From: Candidatus Nomurabacteria bacterium
Lineage (GTDB): Bacteria > Patescibacteriota > Minisyncoccia > Phycocordibacterales > UBA9973
Assembly (NCBI GenBank): GCA_943356675.1
Contig: CALRFQ010000001.1
Span: 4,147-68,146 of the forward strand
Direction of reading: 5' to 3'
DNA: 64,000 nt
The translations under genes were made by a program, and so were the position numbers. Below the pieces are notes generated by a model that saw only the letters and a list, made by a program, of their open reading frames with translations, ran no database searches and was not told the origin of the DNA. Positions 4,043 to 63,139 of this stretch are shown here, piece after piece; within the stretch, counting starts at the first letter, position 1; the number at the start of each line of letters is the position of its first letter.

Positions 4043-4298
4043 TTTACTTTTATGATTATATAATGAAGTCCATTTTAAAATGATAACGCCATGTTTGACT
4101 ACAATGCTCTTTTGGAACTTTTAGATCCGAAACCAATAAGTTTCTATCTATTTTTTGGAATCTGTAGTTTTTTATACTACAGTATCGCCCCATTCTTTTT
4201 TCTTTCTATGCTAAATGCACACCAGAAAAAAAATTAAACCAAATTCTAATCATTTAACAGAGATTGCTTTTACCTTAAAAGTTATCTCTGTTTTTTTA

Positions 4299-5672
<1,374 letters not shown>

Positions 5673-5869: not shown

Positions 5870-6796
5870 TTAACTTACACTTGCCATACCGGCACTAATT
5901 TCTGATATCTCCTGCGTGATCGACGCTTGGCGGGCTTTGTTGAATGCTAAGGTGAGGTCGTCTATCATTTCTCCTGCGGCTTCCGAGGCGTTCTTCATGG
6001 CTACCATTCGGGACGATTGTTCAGAAGCATTTGATTCAAGGAGCATTTGATAAATCTGCATTCGGGATAATTTCTCAGCTAAGCTTCCGATGAGTGCCTC
6101 TTGGTCGCCTTCGAAGGTGTAATCCGTTTTCCCTCTCTGGATAGAGGTCGAACCTCTATCTTCAGATAGAGGTTCGACCTCTATCTCTTCCACCAATTCT
6201 TTAATTTGCTCTTTTGATATTGGTAGGATTTGTTTGATATTTGGCTTTTGTGATAGAGCGGAAACGAAGTCGGTGTATGCTATTAAAATTTTATCGTATT
6301 TATTTTCTTTGTATTGGTCTACTACGAATTTCGATATCGGGACCACATCATTTAGATTTATATTGTCCGGCAATTCGGTGAATGTAGCAATGATATTCTT
6401 CCCTATTCTTCTCATTGCTGTGTCACCTTTCTTTCCGACTGTGACAAAATCAATTTTTGCATTATTTAAATTTACATCTGATGTTTTAAGGAGTGCCAAA
6501 ACCTTTTTTGTTACTTGCGCATTGTATGCTCCACAAAGTCCGCGGTTTGAAGTGATGAGGACAAGGAGCACATTTTTTACTTCGCGTTGAACGAATAGTG
6601 GATGTGTAATTTCCTGTGTACTATTTGCAATAGAAGTAAGAATCTCCCAAGAGTATCCAGCATATAGGCGGGATGCAAGTGTGGAAGAAACCGCGCGCTT
6701 CATCTTGGAAGCCGCCACGAGCTCCATAGCTTTCGTGATCTTTTTCGTGTTCTTCACACTCTTTATTCTTCTTTTGATTTCTTTTGTTCCTGCCAT
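5870..6796 (-). CDS. atpG: F0F1 ATP synthase gamma subunit (contains in-frame palindromic insertion)
   Basis: 308 aa; MAGTKEIKRRIKSVKNTKKITKAMELVAASKMKRA N-terminus and C-terminal SRMVAMKNASEAAGEMIDDLTLAFNKARQASITQEISEI. Confidence 0.9.
   Translation of the reverse strand: MAGTKEIKRRIKSVKNTKKITKAMELVAASKMKRAVSSTLASRLYAGYSWEILTSIANSTQEITHPLFVQREVKNVLLVLITSNRGLCGAYNAQVTKKVLALLKTSDVNLNNAKIDFVTVGKKGDTAMRRIGKNIIATFTELPDNINLNDVVPISKFVVDQYKENKYDKILIAYTDFVSALSQKPNIKQILPISKEQIKELVEEIEVEPLSEDRGSTSIQRGKTDYTFEGDQEALIGSLAEKLSRMQIYQMLLESNASEQSSRMVAMKNASEAAGEMIDDLTLAFNKARQASITQEISEISAGMASVS
6140..6185. repeat. 46-bp perfect palindromic unit (21 nt, TTCA, reverse complement of the 21 nt) in-frame inside atpG
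   Basis: GATAGAGGTCGAACCTCTATC TTCA GATAGAGGTTCGACCTCTATC. Confidence 0.8.
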
Positions 6797-11026: not shown

Positions 11027-11680
11027 TTATGTTTTTACAAAATTCCATCTAATCCCTATTGGATACAGGAACTCCTTCTCTCTTCTTTCGAAATCGAACC
11101 TTTCGTTTATACCAAAGAGGAGATTTAGTCTTTTGTAGTTGATGCCTAGAGCAAAATTGATTTGGTCATCAATTTTTTGATTGAATTTGTTACTCGCTTC
11201 AACAAATCCATTAAAAATACCAAGTGGTAACATTTTTGTTCTGAGTTTTGCATCGATAGCAATTTCCTTCTCAAAAGAGGTAAATATGCCAACATGCAAA
11301 AACTTGAATGGTGTTTTTTCACTCAACTCTTCAAGTTCGAATTCGGCACCGATTCTAAATGGCTCCTTCTCTATGCTTGAAAAATTTTTCTGAAATGCAA
11401 GAAAAATTGGAAACTTCTTCATTCCAAACTGAATTACATTTTCAGATGTGAAAATATTTGGGTCAAAACCAAAATTAATTTGATTCTCACCTTTAATGAT
11501 CACTTTCCCTATTGGTAATCTGTACCAGATTTCCGGAAAGATTTGCTTAGTACTTGTGACCGTTAGGTCTAGTATCTCAATCTTGAATTTCTCCTCAGTG
11601 CTATCCTCTTGCGAAGATGCAATAAAAGGTGAAAAAAATAACGCAATAAGCGTCATCGCGAAGGTAAATTTTCTTGCCAT
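11027..11680 (-). CDS. hypothetical secreted protein (signal peptide)
   Basis: Start moved to MARKFTFAMTLIALFFSPFIASSQ (signal-peptide-like); beta-rich, no recognised domain. Confidence 0.45.
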   Translation of the reverse strand: MARKFTFAMTLIALFFSPFIASSQEDSTEEKFKIEILDLTVTSTKQIFPEIWYRLPIGKVIIKGENQINFGFDPNIFTSENVIQFGMKKFPIFLAFQKNFSSIEKEPFRIGAEFELEELSEKTPFKFLHVGIFTSFEKEIAIDAKLRTKMLPLGIFNGFVEASNKFNQKIDDQINFALGINYKRLNLLFGINERFDFERREKEFLYPIGIRWNFVKT

Positions 11681-12807: not shown

Positions 12808-12852
12808 AAAATAAAAAAAATACACTAACAGAAATGTTAGGGTATTTTTTTA
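12808..12852. terminator. bidirectional terminator between convergent genes
   Basis: A-run, CTAACA-GAAA-TGTTAG hairpin, T-run. Confidence 0.4.
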
Positions 12853-13824
12853 TTCCTCGTCTTCGGCTTCGCCTACGACTCCTGATGACATTGCGTCGAG
12901 GATTTTATCGATTTTGCCAGACATAATTCCGGGGATGTTGGACCATGATTGGCGGATACGGTGATCTGTAACGCGGTCTTGTGGGAAGTTGTATGTGCGA
13001 ATCTTCTCACTTCTATCCCCCGTTCCTATTTGGCCTTTGCGATCTGCAGAATATTTCTTGGCTTCTTCTTCATCCTTTAAGACTTGTAATTTTGCCATAA
13101 GGATAATCATAGCTTGCTCGCGGTTCCCAAGCTGGTTTCTCTCTGTAGTACATCTCACATCTATGCCTGTGGGTTTGTGGATAAGGCGCACTGCTGTCTC
13201 CACCTTGTTCACGTTCTGTCCGCCTGCACCTCCTGCTCGAGAATATTCCATATCAATATCAGCCGGATTGATTTCAATTTTAGATTTCTTACGGAGTGGA
13301 AGAATTGCCACTGATGCAGTGGATGTATGTATGCGCCCGTTCTTCTCAGTAGCGGGAATTCTCTGCACACGGTGCACGCCAGTCTCATATCGAAGTAGTT
13401 TATACACATCCTTACCTCTAATTTCAAAAGATGCTTCTTTGTATCCACCCACTTCATTCATAGATTCGTTTAAGGTTTTCGAAGACCAGCCCTTAGCTTC
13501 AGCATATAGCTCATACATATGTGCGAGCTCGTATGCGAAGAGTGACGCTTCGTCGCCTCCTGCACCAGCGCGAACTTCTAGAATTATTTCATTTGGAAAT
13601 TCTTCCTCCTCTTTTTCAGACTTTTGCATTTCTTCAATTTGGCGCTCCAAGCCTTCTTTTTGGAAAGTAATATTCTGAAGTTCTTCCACAGCGAGCTCTT
13701 TCATGCTCTCATCTTCTGCCACCATATCATTAATCTTCTTTTCTTCAGACAAAAGACGCTCGTATTCATTTGCGAGGTAGCTTGTCTTGTGATTCTTTTT
13801 TAATTCTTCTAAATCGAAGTTCAT
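12850..13824 (-). CDS. prfA: peptide chain release factor 1
   Basis: 324 aa; GGQ motif ([12 protein letters not shown]) and PAT tripeptide (RF1-type PxT). Confidence 0.9.
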
Positions 13825-13891
13825 ATATTTATTCTACCTCACCCCCTACCCCCTCTCCAAATTTTTCAAATTTAGCGAGGGGAAAAAGAAA

Positions 13892-14034
13892 ATCCCAAAT
13901 TAGTTCTTAAGAAATGCCTTGCGCAGAAGCTTAGAAAATAAATGAGGTAGTCTGATTACTATTTTCTTGAGCGACGAGCAGAGAAATTTTCTAAAAAGAA
14001 AATATTCGTGCATTTCGAGAGAAGCTAATTGGGA
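13892..14034. repeat. intercistronic inverted-repeat element, divergent member of the ATCCCRTTAG family (between rpmE and prfA)
   Basis: Arms AAAATCCCAAATTAGTTCTtaaGAAATGC (13889..13918) and GCATTTCGAGAGAAGCTAATTGGGATTTT (14009..14037), about 27/30 complementary. Confidence 0.6.
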
Positions 14035-14042
14035 TTTTATAG

Positions 14043-14261
14043 CTATTTTTTAGTTTTAGTGCCGGCTGCTGCGCGCTTCTTGAAGCGGTCCACACGTCCT
14101 GCTGTGTCGAGGACCTTTTCGTTACCAGTATAGAATGGGTGGCATTGACTGCAGATTTCCACAGCGATTGTATCCATAGTTGAACCAACAGTAAATTTCG
14201 CTCCACATGCGCAAGTGATAGCTGATGCTAAGTTGTATTTTGGGTGTATTTCTTTCTTCAT
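14043..14261 (-). CDS. rpmE: 50S ribosomal protein L31 (Zn-ribbon type)
   Basis: 72 aa; MKKEIHPKY start, CxC...CxxC cysteines. Confidence 0.85.
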
Positions 14262-21571: not shown

Positions 21572-22448
21572 CTAGTTTGTAAAATGTTTTAAGTTCTAGG
21601 AGTGCGACTTCTGTTTGCTTATCTTTAGCGACTTTATCTGTCGGTCCAGATCCTGGAGGATTCCCATGCCAACGATAATCGTATTCAAATGGTGTGACAC
21701 CTTTACTTGCGATTGTGCGTGCAATGATACATGAAGGCTTGTCTGGAATAGCTTTTGCGCGGTTTATTGCATTGTTTATATCTTCTACATTGTGCCCATC
21801 TATTTCTTCTGCATGCCAGCCGAATTCCTCATACTTCTTCGCCATGTCACCAAGGGGGAGTACGTCTTCAGTATTTCCATCAATCTGGATATGGTTGCGG
21901 TCAACTATAGCAATTAAGTTTCCTAATTTTTCTTTACCAGCGAGGAGAACTGCTTCCCATATATTGCCTTCATCATGCTCACCGTCTCCCATCACGCAGT
22001 AGAAGAACTTGCCAGAATTTCTGCCATGATCCATATTCTCAGCGATAGCCATACCGACTGCTTGTGAGAGTCCAGAACCAAGTGGCCCTGAAGAAGTCTC
22101 TACCATTGGTAGGAATTCGCGGTGAGGGTGGCCTTGTAGTCTTGATCCTAATTTTCTGAGAGTTAATAGTTCTTCAACAGGAAAATATCCAGAGTGCGCC
22201 ATTGCAGCATACATAACAGGGCAAATGTGGCCTGCGGAAAGTATAAAGCGATCACGACCCTCCCAGAAAGGCTCCGATGGATTGTGATTTAATTGATGAA
22301 AATAAAGCACAGCAAATACATCTGCCATATCAAGCGGTCCGGCAGTGTGGCCACTCTTCGCCTCTGTAAGCATTTCAATGATACTGATGCGGATTTTTGT
22401 CGCTAGTAATTTGAGTGTTTTGATTTTTTCGTCTGTAAGATTTTCCAT
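21555..22448 (-). CDS. transketolase, N-terminal subunit (TPP-binding)
   Basis: 297 aa; GHxxxxL...GDG(E)xxEG TPP-binding motif (VMGDGEHDEGNIWEA). Confidence 0.85.
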   Translation of the reverse strand: MENLTDEKIKTLKLLATKIRISIIEMLTEAKSGHTAGPLDMADVFAVLYFHQLNHNPSEPFWEGRDRFILSAGHICPVMYAAMAHSGYFPVEELLTLRKLGSRLQGHPHREFLPMVETSSGPLGSGLSQAVGMAIAENMDHGRNSGKFFYCVMGDGEHDEGNIWEAVLLAGKEKLGNLIAIVDRNHIQIDGNTEDVLPLGDMAKKYEEFGWHAEEIDGHNVEDINNAINRAKAIPDKPSCIIARTIASKGVTPFEYDYRWHGNPPGSGPTDKVAKDKQTEVALLELKTFYKLVEEGK

Positions 22449-22557
22449 CCCGTTAGAAGCAGATCGCGATCACTCGCTTCTTACTTGTTAAGTTATTAAT
22501 ATTTATTATATTTGTTTTCATGTTGTTTAATTTCGCGATCGCGGCTTCTAACGGGAT
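22447..22557. repeat. 111-bp intercistronic inverted-repeat element, family A copy 1 (rpe / tkt)
   Basis: Terminal IRs ATCCCGTTAGAAGC (22447..22460) and GCTTCTAACGGGAT (22544..22557), AT-rich centre. One arm contains the rpe stop codon and the other ends in the AT of the tkt start codon. 46 nt are identical to copy 2. Confidence 0.8.
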
Positions 22558-30657: not shown

Positions 30658-31210
30658 TGATATTATTTTCTTGATTTGTAATTGCTTTCTCGAGCTCTTC
30701 CACTACTTCTTTGTATTTAGGAAGCATGGTGATGTCGCTGACTCCCATAAATAGAAGTAAATCAATTGTAGGTGTGTATATAAATCTACGAGAGTCGGTA
30801 GCGTCTACCTTTTTATCAATTAATCCGCGTATGAGTAAGTTGCGGAGAATAAAACTAGAATTAACACCACGAATATAATCAATTTCATTTCTTGTTACTC
30901 CATTCTTATCAGGACCATTTTTATATAAAATAATTGAGAGTGTTTCAAGTGTTGCCTTCGATAATTCTTTAGTAATTTCATCTTTCCTCAATTTCTCAAG
31001 GAAAATACTTGCCTCTTTATTTGTGCCTAGAGTTACTTCGTTCTCAGTTTTAATTATTGTAAGACCCGTGCCTTCCTTCTTGGTACTAAGTGTATCAAGA
31101 GAAGCTACTACTTCTTCAATACTTACTTCCAAAATCTCTGCAATCTTTTTGATTGCAACTGGTTCACCTTTAAAGAAAAGTAATGCTTCAATTTTTGCGT
31201 CTAGTTCCAT
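30650..31210 (-). CDS. scpB: segregation and condensation protein B
   Basis: 186 aa; tandem winged-helix pattern, ALLFFKGEPVAIKKIAE. Confidence 0.8.
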   Translation of the reverse strand: MELDAKIEALLFFKGEPVAIKKIAEILEVSIEEVVASLDTLSTKKEGTGLTIIKTENEVTLGTNKEASIFLEKLRKDEITKELSKATLETLSIILYKNGPDKNGVTRNEIDYIRGVNSSFILRNLLIRGLIDKKVDATDSRRFIYTPTIDLLLFMGVSDITMLPKYKEVVEELEKAITNQENNINE

Positions 31211-31319
31211 CCCGTTAGAAGCAGATCGCGATCACTCGCTTCTTACTTATTAAACTATTAATTTTAATTTTATAAATTTTCATCATGTGTGTTTACGTGA
31301 TCGTGGCTTCTAATGGGAT
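31209..31319. repeat. 111-bp intercistronic inverted-repeat element, family A copy 2 (scpA / scpB)
   Basis: ATCCCGTTAGAAGC at 31209..31222 and GCTTCTAATGGGAT at 31306..31319. Positions 31205..31250 are identical to 22443..22488. The distal arm lies inside the scpA 3' coding end. Confidence 0.8.
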
Positions 31320-36161: not shown

Positions 36162-36168
36162 TTATGGC

Positions 36169-36287
36169 TCCCGTTAGAGATGTGCTGTTCATATGTTTGT
36201 TAAATGTTAAATATAGATTATAGTGTATATATTAATTATTAGTTAATAAGAAACGGAAGTCTAAAGACTTCCTATCTCTAACGGGAT
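36169..36287. repeat. 119-bp intercistronic inverted-repeat element, family A copy 3 (dnaB / recR)
   Basis: TCCCGTTAGAGAT at 36169..36181 and ATCTCTAACGGGAT at 36274..36287 ending in the AT of the recR ATG. Inner hairpin GGAAGTC-TAAA-GACTTCC. Interior carries TTGTTA-N16-TATAGT. Confidence 0.8.
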
Positions 36288-36906
36288 GGACCCGATAAAT
36301 ATTCTCGCAGAAAAATTTAAGGAATTCCCAGGTATTGGTGAACGCCAAGCAAAGCGTTTCGTGTATTTTCTGCTTCATAAAAATCCTAGCTTCGTAAAAA
36401 TACTCGGCGAGGCAATCATTTCTATTAAAAGCCAGATTGCCGAGTGTGAATCTTGCCACATATTCTTTCAAATAAAACCTCATCAGGATAAGCTCTGTGA
36501 GACTTGCGCAAATCCTCAAACTGATCAATCTTCCCTACTTATCGTCGAGAAGGATGCAGATATGGAGACCATAAAGCGCACGAAGACATATAAAGGATTA
36601 TATTTTGTACTTGGTGGTCTTGTACCTATAGTGACTAAGGATACTCCTACTTTTGTTCGCACAAACGAACTTCAAGCTGTTGTAAAAGACCGTATTAAGA
36701 ATAAAGTTCTAAAGGAAATTATATTAGGTCTTTCTATTAATCCTCACGGTGAACATACAGATTTATATCTACGTGAATTACTCCACCCACTTATAGAAAA
36801 CACAAATGTTAGAATTGTATCTTTAGGTAAAGGCCTCTCCACAGGCACTGAGCTCGAATACTCCGACTCCGAAACTATCAAAAACGCTCTCAAAAACCGC
36901 GGCTAA
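36286..36906 (+). CDS. recR: recombination protein RecR
   Basis: 206 aa; HhH FPGIGERQAKR, C4 zinc finger CESCH...CETC, Toprim LIVEKDADME. Confidence 0.85.
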   Translation: MDPINILAEKFKEFPGIGERQAKRFVYFLLHKNPSFVKILGEAIISIKSQIAECESCHIFFQIKPHQDKLCETCANPQTDQSSLLIVEKDADMETIKRTKTYKGLYFVLGGLVPIVTKDTPTFVRTNELQAVVKDRIKNKVLKEIILGLSINPHGEHTDLYLRELLHPLIENTNVRIVSLGKGLSTGTELEYSDSETIKNALKNRG

Positions 36907-43710: not shown

Positions 43711-44730
43711 TTAAGCTGAGTATTTTTCGATTAGTTTATTTGCTTCTGCGGGATTTGCTTTCATTTCAAGTAGTGCTGTGAGCATAAGAGGCACAACGAT
43801 TGTGGCATCGGACTCCACGACGAACATTGGAGTGTCTTTTGTGAGCTTGTCCCAAGTGATCTTTTCATTTGGAGTAGCACCTGAGTATGATCCGTATGAA
43901 GTAGTTGAGTCTGAAATCTGACAGAAGTATGCCCAAGGCTTAACTTCTTGCTCCATATCGTATTTAAGTGATGGCACTACGCATATTGGGAAGTCTCCAG
44001 CGATACCTCCACCGATTTGGAAGAAGCCAATTCCCTCTCCCTCAGAAAGCTTTTGGTATTGGTCATAAAATTCTCCCATGTATTCGATACCACTCTTTGC
44101 GATAGAAGCTGATGCATCTCCATGCTTTACGTGAGATGCGAAAATGTTTCCAAATGTTGAGTCTTCATATCCTGGAACTACTATTGGTATGTTGTTCTCA
44201 GCTGCAGCAAGTAGCCAGCATTCTTCTGCTTTACCTTCATGCTTATCTTTATCGATAGCTTGAATCAAGTCATAGAAGTACTCATGCCAGAATTTGCGAG
44301 TGCCATTCTTTGTAGCTTCTTCCCAAACTGGCACAATGTGTTTCTCCACAGCGCGGAAAGCTTCATCTTCAGGGATACTTGTGTCTGTAACGCGGCGCAT
44401 ACGATTCTCGAGTATCTTTGTGTCATCCTCTTTTGTGAAGTATCTGTAATCTGGAAAATCTTTGTATGAATCATGAGCAACGAGGCGGAAAAGTGATTCC
44501 TCAAGGTTCGCACCTGTGACAGACATACCACTGATAAGTCCTGCGCGGATAGCTGGGGCAAGCACGATACCAAGCTGTGCAGAAGACATAGCTCCAGCTA
44601 CCGCCCAAAACATCTTGCCTCCTTTTTCTGCATGGCGCCAGTAAGCGATAAGCGCATCGCGAGTAGCACGAGCATTGAAGTTCTTGTAATTTTTTAATAT
44701 AAATTCTAATGTGTTTAAATTATTTTGCAT
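43711..44730 (-). CDS. deoxyhypusine synthase-like protein (possible homospermidine/spermidine-forming aminobutyl transferase)
   Basis: 339 aa; N-terminal Rossmann region MFWAVAGAMSSAQLG...MSVTGANLEESLF aligns with the DHS-family TSNLISSGLR...VTTAGGVEED. Confidence 0.65.
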   Translation of the reverse strand: MQNNLNTLEFILKNYKNFNARATRDALIAYWRHAEKGGKMFWAVAGAMSSAQLGIVLAPAIRAGLISGMSVTGANLEESLFRLVAHDSYKDFPDYRYFTKEDDTKILENRMRRVTDTSIPEDEAFRAVEKHIVPVWEEATKNGTRKFWHEYFYDLIQAIDKDKHEGKAEECWLLAAAENNIPIVVPGYEDSTFGNIFASHVKHGDASASIAKSGIEYMGEFYDQYQKLSEGEGIGFFQIGGGIAGDFPICVVPSLKYDMEQEVKPWAYFCQISDSTTSYGSYSGATPNEKITWDKLTKDTPMFVVESDATIVVPLMLTALLEMKANPAEANKLIEKYSA

Positions 44731-44833
44731 CCCGTGTGAAATTTATTAATTAAGTAATATTGTAATTATAGCGTAATTTAACTTTTTGTACATTCCAAAT
44801 AGATTTATAGTTATTATAAATTTCTATCGGGAT
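44729..44833. repeat. 105-bp intercistronic inverted-repeat element, degenerate family A copy 4 (decarboxylase / DHS-like)
   Basis: ATCCCGTGTGAAATTTAT (44729..44746) and ATAAATTTCTATCGGGAT (44816..44833). One arm starts with the AT of the DHS-like ATG and the other ends at the decarboxylase stop codon. Confidence 0.6.
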
Positions 44834-58998: not shown

Positions 58999-59077
58999 CT
59001 ACAGACTAGGTTCTAGTAGCTAGTGACTAGGTTGCCTTTTTAAGAATTTTATTTTGTTTTTTCTAGAAACTAGAACC
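58997..59077. repeat. inverted repeat CTAGGTTCTAG ... CTAGAACCTAG-like arms flanking 55 bp, between alaS and the PilM-like gene
   Basis: ACTAGGTTCTAGTAGCTAGTGACTAGG ... CTAGAAACTAGAACCTAACTACTAGAAACTA; CTAG-rich. Confidence 0.5.
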
Positions 59078-59090
59078 TAACTACTAGAAA

Positions 59091-61948: not shown

Positions 61949-63139
61949 CTATTTTACCACACCACCACCCAAGCAAATATCTTTATCGTATAGAACCACT
62001 GATTGCCCGCTTGCAAGTGCACCATCTGGCTTTTCAAATTTAATTTTTATTTCGTTTCCATTAACTTCAAGAATTTCAACTTTAAGAATTTCGCCATGGT
62101 AGCGAACTTGTGCTAAATATTTTTGCCCAATTTTAATATTTCCACGAATAACGGCATTTGTAAGTGTGACAAATTCATTATTTTTTTTATTTAAATCTTT
62201 ATCATGTGACACAATAAGGGTATTGTTATTTATATCTTTGGCCACGATGTAGTAAGGTGTATCGTTTGGTGTGGTCTTTATGATAGTAAATCCATGTCTT
62301 TCACCAAGTGTGTATAAGAGGACTCCATCGTGAGTGCCTATCTCTTCCCCATCCTCTGTTACCACATTTCCACTGCGCACATTTATGTAATGCTTAAGGA
62401 AGTCCTTCATATCAAGTGGGCCGAGGAAGCACACACCTTGCGAATCTTTCTTTGTAGCTGTCGGTAGATTATATTTTTCTGCCAATTTCCGTACTTCACT
62501 TTTTTTCATATGACCAATAGGAAAAAGTGTATGGGAAAGATCTTCTTCTGTAAGTGTCCAGAGAAAATATGATTGATCTTTTGTAGTATCTTGTGAGCGG
62601 AAAAGAAAATAGTTTTTCGATGCCTCCGCAGGCGCGTAGCTTGGTGTCGTCAAGAGTACTTCTCTTGACGACGAAGCGCCGAGGACTAAGCGAGGACTCC
62701 GCAGGAGCGGCTGAGCGGGCTGAGAAGAATTATTTTCTTTTCCGCTCACAACAGCATAGTGCCCAGTGGCAATAAAATCTGCACCATGCTCTTTTGCAAA
62801 TTTCCAAAAGACACCAAATTTCACTTCGCGATTACACATTACATCAGGATTTGGAGTGCGTCCTTCTTTATATTCTCTTATCATATAATCCGCCACGCCA
62901 CGCTTGTATGCATCTTCTGCATCACACTCAAGGAATGGCACATCTAGTGCTGCACACACCCTCATAGCATCACGCCTTTCATCTTTCCAAGTGCATTCTA
63001 TAAAGTCTGGAGTCCAAGTACGAATAAACACACCGACTACATTGTAGCCAGCTTCTTTAAGAATCGCTAAAGAGACAGAGCTATCAACCCCACCCGAGAC
63101 TCCTACAAATACAGTTTTATTTATCACTTTTCTCTTCAC
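61949..63139 (-). CDS. mnmA: tRNA-specific 2-thiouridylase MnmA (contains in-frame GC-rich palindromic insertion)
   Basis: 396 aa; PP-loop SGGVDSS, catalytic Cys (CNREVKF, GVCFLG), DQSYFL motif. Confidence 0.85.
   Translation of the reverse strand: MKRKVINKTVFVGVSGGVDSSVSLAILKEAGYNVVGVFIRTWTPDFIECTWKDERRDAMRVCAALDVPFLECDAEDAYKRGVADYMIREYKEGRTPNPDVMCNREVKFGVFWKFAKEHGADFIATGHYAVVSGKENNSSQPAQPLLRSPRLVLGASSSREVLLTTPSYAPAEASKNYFLFRSQDTTKDQSYFLWTLTEEDLSHTLFPIGHMKKSEVRKLAEKYNLPTATKKDSQGVCFLGPLDMKDFLKHYINVRSGNVVTEDGEEIGTHDGVLLYTLGERHGFTIIKTTPNDTPYYIVAKDINNNTLIVSHDKDLNKKNNEFVTLTNAVIRGNIKIGQKYLAQVRYHGEILKVEILEVNGNEIKIKFEKPDGALASGQSVVLYDKDICLGGGVVK
62595..62747. repeat. 153-bp GC-rich palindromic element inserted in-frame in mnmA
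   Basis: 24-bp terminal IRs GAGCGGAAAAGAAAATAgTTtTTC / GAAgAAtTATTTTCTTTTCCGCTC. Internal perfect palindrome GTCGTCAAGAG-TACT-CTCTTGACGAC. About 60% GC against about 35% background. Both strands translate to SGKEN...SSR(E)VLL(L)TT...KNYFLFRSQ. Confidence 0.8.

Follow-up and report, generated by a model that had tools for sequence, protein, structure and literature searches.

ERIC sequences, or IRUs, are imperfect palindromes of approximately 127 bp that lie in transcribed gaps of enterobacterial genomes in either orientation, occur as variants with internal insertions and are present or absent at orthologous sites. REPs are shorter (20-40 nt) and high-copy, are tied to RAYT transposases and, where they occupy operon gaps, stabilise the upstream mRNA segment. 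Correia elements of Neisseria and MITEs are small non-coding inverted repeats between genes which can act as terminators or promoters and whose RNA hairpins are processed, and Rickettsia palindromic elements (RPEs) are palindromic repeats of a reduced genome that are found in frame inside genes. CPR bacteria (Patescibacteria) have some of the smallest and most densely packed genomes known, and these genomes are generally regarded as poor in repeats. GTAG- and CGTC-tagged REPs have been described by Di Nocera et al. (2013; PMC3733652).

The locus characterized here is the spacer between rpmE and prfA in a 64-kb stretch of DNA, referred to as the window, that has 35-44% G+C and tightly packed genes, so that this spacer is among its longer gaps. 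The spacer contains an inverted repeat that is one copy of an uncatalogued hairpin-forming repeat of CPR/Paceibacteria, designated R1, situated inside the predicted rpmE terminator hairpin; no account of such repeats in CPR bacteria emerged from a full-text literature search. The spacer as a whole is a composite of four components, namely the predicted native rpmE terminator, a 134-nt nested palindromic repeat, a small GC-rich module with a G-tract and the prfA promoter. Its features are as follows, in the order in which the genes are read.

14043-14261, minus strand: rpmE coding sequence (ribosomal protein L31, 72 aa), from the ORF list
13825-14042, minus strand: rpmE-prfA spacer, 218 nt, from the ORF list
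14031-14038, minus strand: 5' half of the basal stem, AAAATCCC; L001, the closest relative, has AAAAATCGC...GCGATTTTTCTTTT at the same place
13897-14030, minus strand: repeat element proper, approximately 134 nt, from AATTAGCTTCTCTCGAAATGC to GCATTTCTTAAGAACTAATT(T); R1 score 80.3 bits, inner stem found in other copies
13983-14007, minus strand: core hairpin P3 (GAATATTTTCT-TTTT-AGAAAATTTC), from pairing and covariation
13918-13982, minus strand: core hairpin P4, here in the extended form (TCTGCTCGTCGCTCAAGAAAATAGTAATCAGACTACCTCATTTATTTTCTAAGCTTCTGCGCAAG); conservation within the subfamily is highest in this part
13889-13896, minus strand: 3' half of the basal (terminator) stem, GGGATTTT, from the inverted-repeat search and comparison with L001
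13883-13893, minus strand: T-tract ATTTTCTTTTT after the stem, the U-tract of the putative rpmE terminator; also present after the simple hairpin of L001
13850-13882, minus strand: second small hairpin (CCCCTCGCTAAATTT-GAA-AAATTTGGAGAGGGG), inverted repeat I3, 15-nt arms, 87% complementary
13837-13858, minus (gene) strand: G-tract GGAGAGGGGGTAGGGGGTGAGG, unique in the window
13854-13859, minus strand: -35-like TGGAGA, 17 nt upstream of the -10 box, from the promoter scan
13831-13836, minus strand: predicted prfA -10 box TAGAAT, 6 nt before the ATG, from the promoter scan
12850-13824, minus strand: prfA coding sequence (peptide chain release factor 1, RF1, 324 aa), from the ORF list

The rpmE stop codon, TAG, lies 4 nt ahead of the hairpin. 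Imperfect inverted repeats of approximately 30 bp had been reported here in a first-pass annotation and are real: the arms, at 13889-13917 and 14010-14038, are 29 nt long, 76% complementary and separated by 92 nt, and the sequences quoted for them were confirmed. The spacer RNA folds at -63.6 kcal/mol compared with a mean of -46.7 for shuffled sequences (z = -4.5, none of 200 shuffles being as good), and the opposite strand folds equally well (z = -4.4), as expected for a palindrome. Comparison of the window copy and a canonical copy of the element with Rfam 15 gave chance-level matches only, and Rfam scans of the window and seven loci at gathering thresholds returned only tRNA and one SAM riboswitch, both elsewhere.

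Relatives of the locus were collected with a prfA-based scan, retaining one genome per species, which yielded 80 loci, all from Patescibacteria (labelled Paceibacteria or Nomurabacteria). By tblastn, 79 of these loci hold both genes, and in all 79 rpmE is the gene immediately upstream of prfA. The RF1 of L001 is 98% identical to that of the window, the DNA only about 85-88%. Most relatives have a spacer of approximately 60 nt in which an A-run is followed by a simple hairpin, a T-run and, a few bases ahead of the ATG, a TATAAT-like box, and L001, which lacks the element, conforms to this with AAAAATCGCTC-TTTC-AGGGCGATTTTTCTTTT, then TGCTATAAT, 8 nt and the ATG; the check proposed in the first-pass annotation, whether element-free relatives have a short rpmE-prfA spacer, was thereby answered in the affirmative. 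The presence of the element in the window and its absence from L001 fit either insertion in the lineage of the window or deletion in that of L001. The basal stem AAAATCCC/GGGATTTT, which is not common to element copies at other loci, was attributed to the native rpmE terminator and placed outside the element proper. This CCC/GGG stem is followed by TTTTCTTTTT, is homologous to the simple terminator of L001 and forms a predicted terminator, and comparable T-runs occur 3' of a hairpin in the spacers of many relatives. A terminator scanner reported none at the spacer hairpin because its loop range is limited to 3-8 nt. The sequence GGAAAAAGAAAAT, quoted previously, is the terminator T-tract ATTTTCTTTTT read on the other strand. 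A motif next to the left arm, GGAAAAGAAAAT, had been linked to the edge of a palindromic insert in mnmA, and it does occur more often than expected in the window (five matches at up to one mismatch against 1.4 expected), but two of the five are the mnmA palindrome's own arms and the copy in the spacer is a plain terminator T-tract, present in the element-free L001 too.

In the element proper, a two-hairpin core stands on an inner stem that carries a conserved internal mismatch. Across the family, R1 measures 120-160 nt and is built as a long near-continuous stem (P1 and P2) topped by hairpins P3 and P4, the sequence of the stem varying from copy to copy while its complementarity is kept. Hairpin P3 is typically AAATTTCT-NNNN-AGAAATTT, with seven pairs, 99% of cells paired and double-sided change in five pairs. 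P4 is typically short, with covarying pairs, but has a long form in the copies of the window and L040; in a block of approximately 65 nt around the 24-nt search pattern, most columns of a 46-copy alignment are at least 90% conserved, including columns outside the pattern. A covariance model of R1, built after an HMM from 26 seeds (124 positions, 32 pairs), matches the window copy over its full length at 13885-14045 on the minus strand with 80.3 bits and E about 1e-15, and its nearest relatives, the copies of L040, L081 and L086, score 74-90 bits, the window copy and L040 being among the seeds and L081 and L086 not. Compensatory changes between the arms in related genomes, proposed earlier as a check on the inverted repeat, were found, with double-sided changes in 30 of the 32 pairs. 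Standard pairs occupy 87% of cells compared with 65% in shuffles, none of 500 of which reached the observed value, and at most 58% in slid controls, whilst the number of cells changed on both sides is 193 compared with 63 in shuffles. The pairs among 906 cells comprise 831 Watson-Crick, nine G-U and nine A-C, and are therefore without strand asymmetry. With filters off, no second R1 copy was found in the 64-kb window, leftover weak matches being ordinary terminator hairpins.

Approximately 70 copies of R1 were identified in total, about 30 in the 80 genome loci and 42 in 45 metagenome loci retrieved with a 24-nt pattern from the extended P4, several of the metagenome contigs holding two or three. 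The earlier description of the inverted repeat as a member of a repeat family therefore stands as far as repetition is concerned, although the family is R1 and not family A, the group to which it had been assigned. The copies are intergenic and, on a crude, mechanical ORF map, typically start 1-20 nt past a stop codon and end 5-50 nt ahead of the next start; on the same map none of the approximately 70 is securely inside a gene. Relative to flanking genes, 28 copies have the same orientation and 19 the opposite. Two orthologous sites hold R1 repeatedly, the one after rpmE (21 genomes, with 15 of the spacer copies oriented one way and six the other) and the one between atpD and atpC (eight genomes). 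When empty, the latter is an operon junction of 3-25 nt without a hairpin, and R1 therefore brings its own long stem; for expression of atpC, transcription must also pass through an R1 copy located between atpD and atpC. Copies were additionally found between divergent gene starts in L091 and L082, and these together with the atpD-atpC copies indicate that terminator activity is not the general role of R1. Insertion of the core into the loop of a pre-existing terminator was considered as a rule; it fits the rpmE site and fails at the hairpin-free empty atpD-atpC junction.

Flipped interiors within the same outer stem were observed at both recurrent sites: between L081 and L099, identity rises from 69% in the same sense to 89% on flipping, and between L015 and L036 from 67% to 80%. 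Such flips with a shared outer stem would be the expected product of recombination between the arms. The relationships of the copies do not follow those of their hosts: the greatest identity of the window copy is to that of L040 (78%), a genome whose RF1 is among the least similar, whilst the nearest RF1 relatives that carry the element have copies only about 50% identical to that of the window. L040 has a second R1 copy, after atpD, whose inner stem is common with the window copy, and this inner stem is also present in metagenome copies. In a 40-copy alignment P3 modules are swapped whole. P3 modules also differ between copies at a single locus, and L110 differs in P3 from L100, L102, L117 and L121 despite common stems and flanks. 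A core-deleted remnant of R1 was found in L006. The core, outside the search pattern, is 79-95% identical where the adjacent atpD DNA is 74-82% identical, a comparison biased by selection of the copies with a core pattern. The 10-kb flanks of the approximately 70 copies revealed no transposase, target-site duplication or autonomous parent, and the putative mobility of R1 is therefore a conclusion drawn solely from its distribution, from incongruence and from mosaicism. Nor was a long version with an ORF present among these copies, the longest, in L106, being 236 nt. These data show R1 to be a dispersed, mosaic and invertible palindromic repeat, nested at this locus in a hairpin matching the rpmE terminator.

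Several candidate associations of R1 were rejected. Association with a Xer-type recombinase was discarded, since copies flank such a gene in L089 only and no homologue lies near other copies. Carriage by phage was not supported, two element patterns having no match in viral contigs and the 19 viral matches to a third falling in a conserved protein-coding phage gene in which R1 finds nothing. The P4 loop GGATTACCTC was considered as an anti-Shine-Dalgarno mimic and dismissed, as its CCTC is not conserved among copies. The Xer-like recombinase ORF of L089 (10905-11876) itself contains an in-frame palindromic insert, AAGCCTGGCTTAGGGGC…GCCCCTAAGCCAGGCTT, at about 11540-11610; R1 is present on both sides of this ORF, with a third R1 copy after the next gene, which from the look of its sequence may encode an exonuclease III.

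The remainder of the spacer, between the T-tract and prfA, is distinct from R1. The G-rich tract noted previously is present as GGAGAGGGGGTAGGGGGTGAGG and is unique in the window. It makes up the 3' portion of a GC-rich module that recurs elsewhere, CCCCTC...GGAGRGGGGG-NN-GGGGGTG, and the small hairpin at 13850-13882 is absent from L001. In the rpmE-prfA spacers of L029 and L050 the module lies on the other strand adjoining the rpmE stop; in atpD of L096 it forms an in-frame insert of 22-24 aa at about 4480-4580, and it is also present at about 2620-2740 in a 748-aa ORF of L083 that appears FtsK-like from its motifs. The module, occurring both in spacers and in frame, is thus a second, GC-rich repeat with habits like those of Rickettsia palindromic elements. 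The GC-rich repeat (…CCTCGYCCTWCGGRCACTCCYCC… plus a G5-NN-G5 hairpin) was seen in the spacers of L029, L045 and L050 and in frame within essential genes, to whose products it contributes PPRPSGTPPQ…EGAGG-like peptides. Interpretation of the tract as a G-quadruplex was rejected, as it has only two long G-runs and belongs to a recurrent hairpin module.

Of 78 relatives, 62 have a -10-like hexamer within the final 30 nt of the spacer; it lies 6-8 nt before the ATG (mode 6) in 44 of these and has the extended TGn form in 32. Upstream of prfA in L001-L080, most relatives have TATAAT-like boxes, often TGnTATAAT, without a Shine-Dalgarno sequence, and from this sequence pattern we infer that prfA in this clade is probably expressed in a leaderless or nearly leaderless manner. 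The G-tract had been described as part of a leader, a description that does not hold: the tract is located upstream of the -10 box and would therefore be absent from the prfA mRNA of that promoter. For the element itself, a role as prfA 5' leader or cis-regulator was likewise not borne out at this locus, the -10 box lying between element and ATG and six of the 21 spacer copies being inverted.

Other repeats and palindromes were observed in the window and its relatives. The mnmA ORF (61949-63139, minus strand) contains a palindrome at 62591-62751 with 45-nt arms that leaves the reading frame intact. The Pfam family tRNA_Me_trans is split into two stretches in this ORF, suggesting that the palindrome is an in-frame insert of approximately 50 aa, like Rickettsia palindromic elements. 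As a candidate second copy of R1 the mnmA palindrome was rejected, since R1 gives no match there with filters off and only a short stretch beside the stem, TTCTTCTCAG ... AACTATTTT, is common. Further hairpin families with a conserved apex and variable stems are present in the rpmE-prfA spacers of L005, L006 and L042 and at the atpD-atpC junctions of L011, L029 and L056, examples being …AAAATTTTYCCCGCTTTACCCYAAAGGG… and AAAATTTTTCGGGAAGAGGCYTGRCCTCAA…GAGGYCAAGCCTC…AAAATTTT; the same short spacers are taken repeatedly by different repeat families. A repeat of CTAGAAACTAGAACCTA / TAGGTTCTAGTAGCTAG units is found at 59007-59080 of the window, just upstream of prfA in L054 and L061, and after atpD in L007. 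At 6140-6185 a perfect hairpin with 22-nt arms (GATAGAGGTCGAACCTCTATCT / AGATAGAGGTTCGACCTCTATC) and a 2-nt loop lies within a 308-aa ORF (5870-6796, minus strand). In most relatives atpC follows atpD within a few bases, whereas the window has a 256-nt gap after atpD (4043-4298) with a simple hairpin, AACAGAGAT…ATCTCTGTT; its atp operon junction is remodelled.

With regard to the assignment of the spacer element to family A as a divergent member, the two kinds of repeat are alike in several respects: they occur in the same genomes, are of similar size (approximately 110-150 nt), palindromic and intergenic, lie in operon gaps and can occupy the same spacers, and their outer ends share ATCCC..TTAG. 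Family A comprises elements of 107-120 nt with invariant ends CCCGTTAGAR ... YTCTAACGGG (ATCCCGTTAG ... CTAACGGGAT); window copies are located at 22446-22557, 31208-31319 and 36168-36288, with a weaker one at 44729-44833, and the family is widespread, being found also in L007, L036, L059, L060, L071, L072 and others. A family A profile HMM (13 copies, nhmmer) recovers three window copies (E = 1e-15 to 8e-17) and many in relatives and nothing at 44729, but has no match in 13826-14042 at E ≤ 10, and reciprocally the R1 model has no match at 22447, 31209, 36169 or 44729. Family A is also unlike R1 in its invariant ends, fixed orientation, AT-rich interior and a 3' end that abuts the downstream ATG: of 14 listed copies outside the spacer, 13 end ...CTAAYGGG followed by AT, mostly ATG, the exception being the mismatched pair of L001. 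By contrast, the ends of the spacer element read ATCCCAATTAG / CTAATTTGGGAT and the element ends 65 nt ahead of the prfA ATG, and the R1 stem positions that correspond to the invariant ends of family A vary from copy to copy. The end ATCCCAATTAG is itself a composite: ATCCC comes from the base of the terminator stem and is found also in L001, which lacks the element, and AATTAG belongs to the element itself. Together with the inner stem, AATTAG...CTAATT recurs in the L040 copy after atpD and in metagenome copies. The motif said to be shared, ATCCCRWTTAG, is not enriched, with three window matches at up to one mismatch against 4.2 by chance, and the left arm actually reads ATCCCAAATTAG. Membership of family A is accordingly very improbable. 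Family A was also seen just before prfA in L036 and L059, with a probable divergent copy in L031 (by eye only), and comparison of L060 (filled) with L062 (empty) showed that a copy at atpD-atpC replaces the atpC ATG region by ...CTAACGGGATA.

The main rival explanation of R1 gives its core a function, either as a structured RNA or as a DNA site recognised by structure, and conservation of the core favours this rival. As an RNA, the core would bind a protein or ligand and act as a 3'-UTR or intercistronic regulator or as a small RNA, with the stem as scaffold. Covariation in P3 and P4, a conserved apical loop TAATCGGATTACCTC with a GCGCAAG junction and a single G-U pair that is invariant in 40 copies are consistent with such a function, as are the many genomes in which copies follow the housekeeping genes rpmE and atpD and a core at least as conserved as neighbouring atpD DNA, in copies picked by a core pattern. 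However, G-U pairs in general are as rare as A-C (nine each), unlike what would result from selection at the RNA level on one strand; orientation is mixed and flips at the same locus, whole modules are swapped, there is no conserved promoter at one side and Rfam has no matching family, all of which make a dedicated RNA function rather unlikely. The strictly Watson-Crick, strand-symmetric pairing would suit a device acting at the DNA level, either an invertible switch operated by recombination between the arms or single-stranded DNA hairpins recognised by a recombinase or HUH-type enzyme. Both orientations are found within identical outer stems at two orthologous loci, and inner-stem mismatches such as TATAAAGC/GCTTTCTA are conserved, as at structure-recognised sites. 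No recombinase is consistently nearby, however, the Xer-like gene of L089 being the only one flanked by copies; the core has no evident promoter, the prfA promoter is outside the element so that a flip switches nothing obvious here, and ordinary homologous recombination also inverts DNA between long inverted repeats. We therefore regard a DNA-level device as improbable. In a related reading, the conserved core may be a structure-recognised site for a putative enzyme that copies or flips hairpins.

The position of the hairpins between genes raises a further possibility, that the stem juxtaposes stop and start codons such that a terminating ribosome could re-initiate across the base of the hairpin with no unwinding, as a bacterial counterpart of ribosome shunting. 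The geometry of R1 would fit this, with copies beginning just past a stop, ending shortly before a start and replacing the short atpD-atpC junction. In family A the 5' end TCC CGT TAG can serve as upstream stop and the 3' end CTAACGGG directly precedes the downstream ATG; the stem therefore juxtaposes stop and start, making the case even clearer for family A than for R1. Such a process may explain tolerance of the elements inside operons, although we consider it a speculative idea with little chance of being correct.

The explanation we favour, and regard as moderately probable, is that R1 is a selfish, mosaic palindromic repeat of the ERIC/BIME type, which the host tolerates and may also exploit as a terminator or as a hairpin at mRNA ends. 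On this explanation R1 would have been copied between intergenic sites as a selfish element and would be tolerated because its transcript is simply a very stable stem-loop. Alternation of orientation would explain why only Watson-Crick pairs survive. Beside a T-tract, a stem-loop of either orientation could still terminate rpmE transcripts or stop 3'-exonucleases, whilst prfA would be transcribed separately, leaderless or nearly so, from its -10 box 6 nt ahead of the ATG.

In annotation, the rpmE-prfA spacer should not be taken for a regulatory leader, and the locus points to leaderless-type promoters 6 nt ahead of the start. This one spacer also shows that CPR/Patescibacteria genomes carry several hairpin-forming repeat families, which occupy terminators and operon junctions and, for the GC-rich module, sites in frame inside essential genes. 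The R1 covariance model and the approximately 70 copies represent a resource for studying the function of the core and the spread and flipping of palindromes in reduced genomes.

Among described systems, R1 lacks the features that define several classes. Conserved terminal inverted repeats and target-site duplications typical of MITEs were not found, the outer stem of R1 being variable and filled and empty atpD-atpC junctions showing no direct duplication, although R1 resembles Correia elements and MITEs as a small non-coding inverted-repeat element between genes. R1 is like REPs, BIMEs and REPINs in being palindromic, extragenic, often at gene 3' ends and composed of mosaic modules, but differs from REPs in size (120-160 nt), in low copy number (approximately one per 64 kb in the window, copy number per genome being an estimate from 64 kb of the window genome and 10-kb flanks elsewhere) and in having no end tag, CGTC occurring only as the P4 loop of some copies. 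The G-tract module of the spacer is RPE-like in that it recurs in frame inside genes, whereas R1, with no copy securely inside a gene among approximately 70, is unlike RPEs and has no sequence relation to them. R1 is also like ERIC, with which it shares size, an imperfect palindrome forming a long stem-loop, location in intergenic and operon gaps, both orientations, variants with internal insertions and presence or absence at orthologous sites; compared by description, ERIC is conserved over its full length and belongs to another phylum, whilst in R1 only the apical core is conserved, together with the inner stem in subfamilies, and the basal stem is variable. R1 is thus unusual in combining a conserved apical core and variable basal stems with in-place flips and residence at operon junctions in a highly reduced genome.
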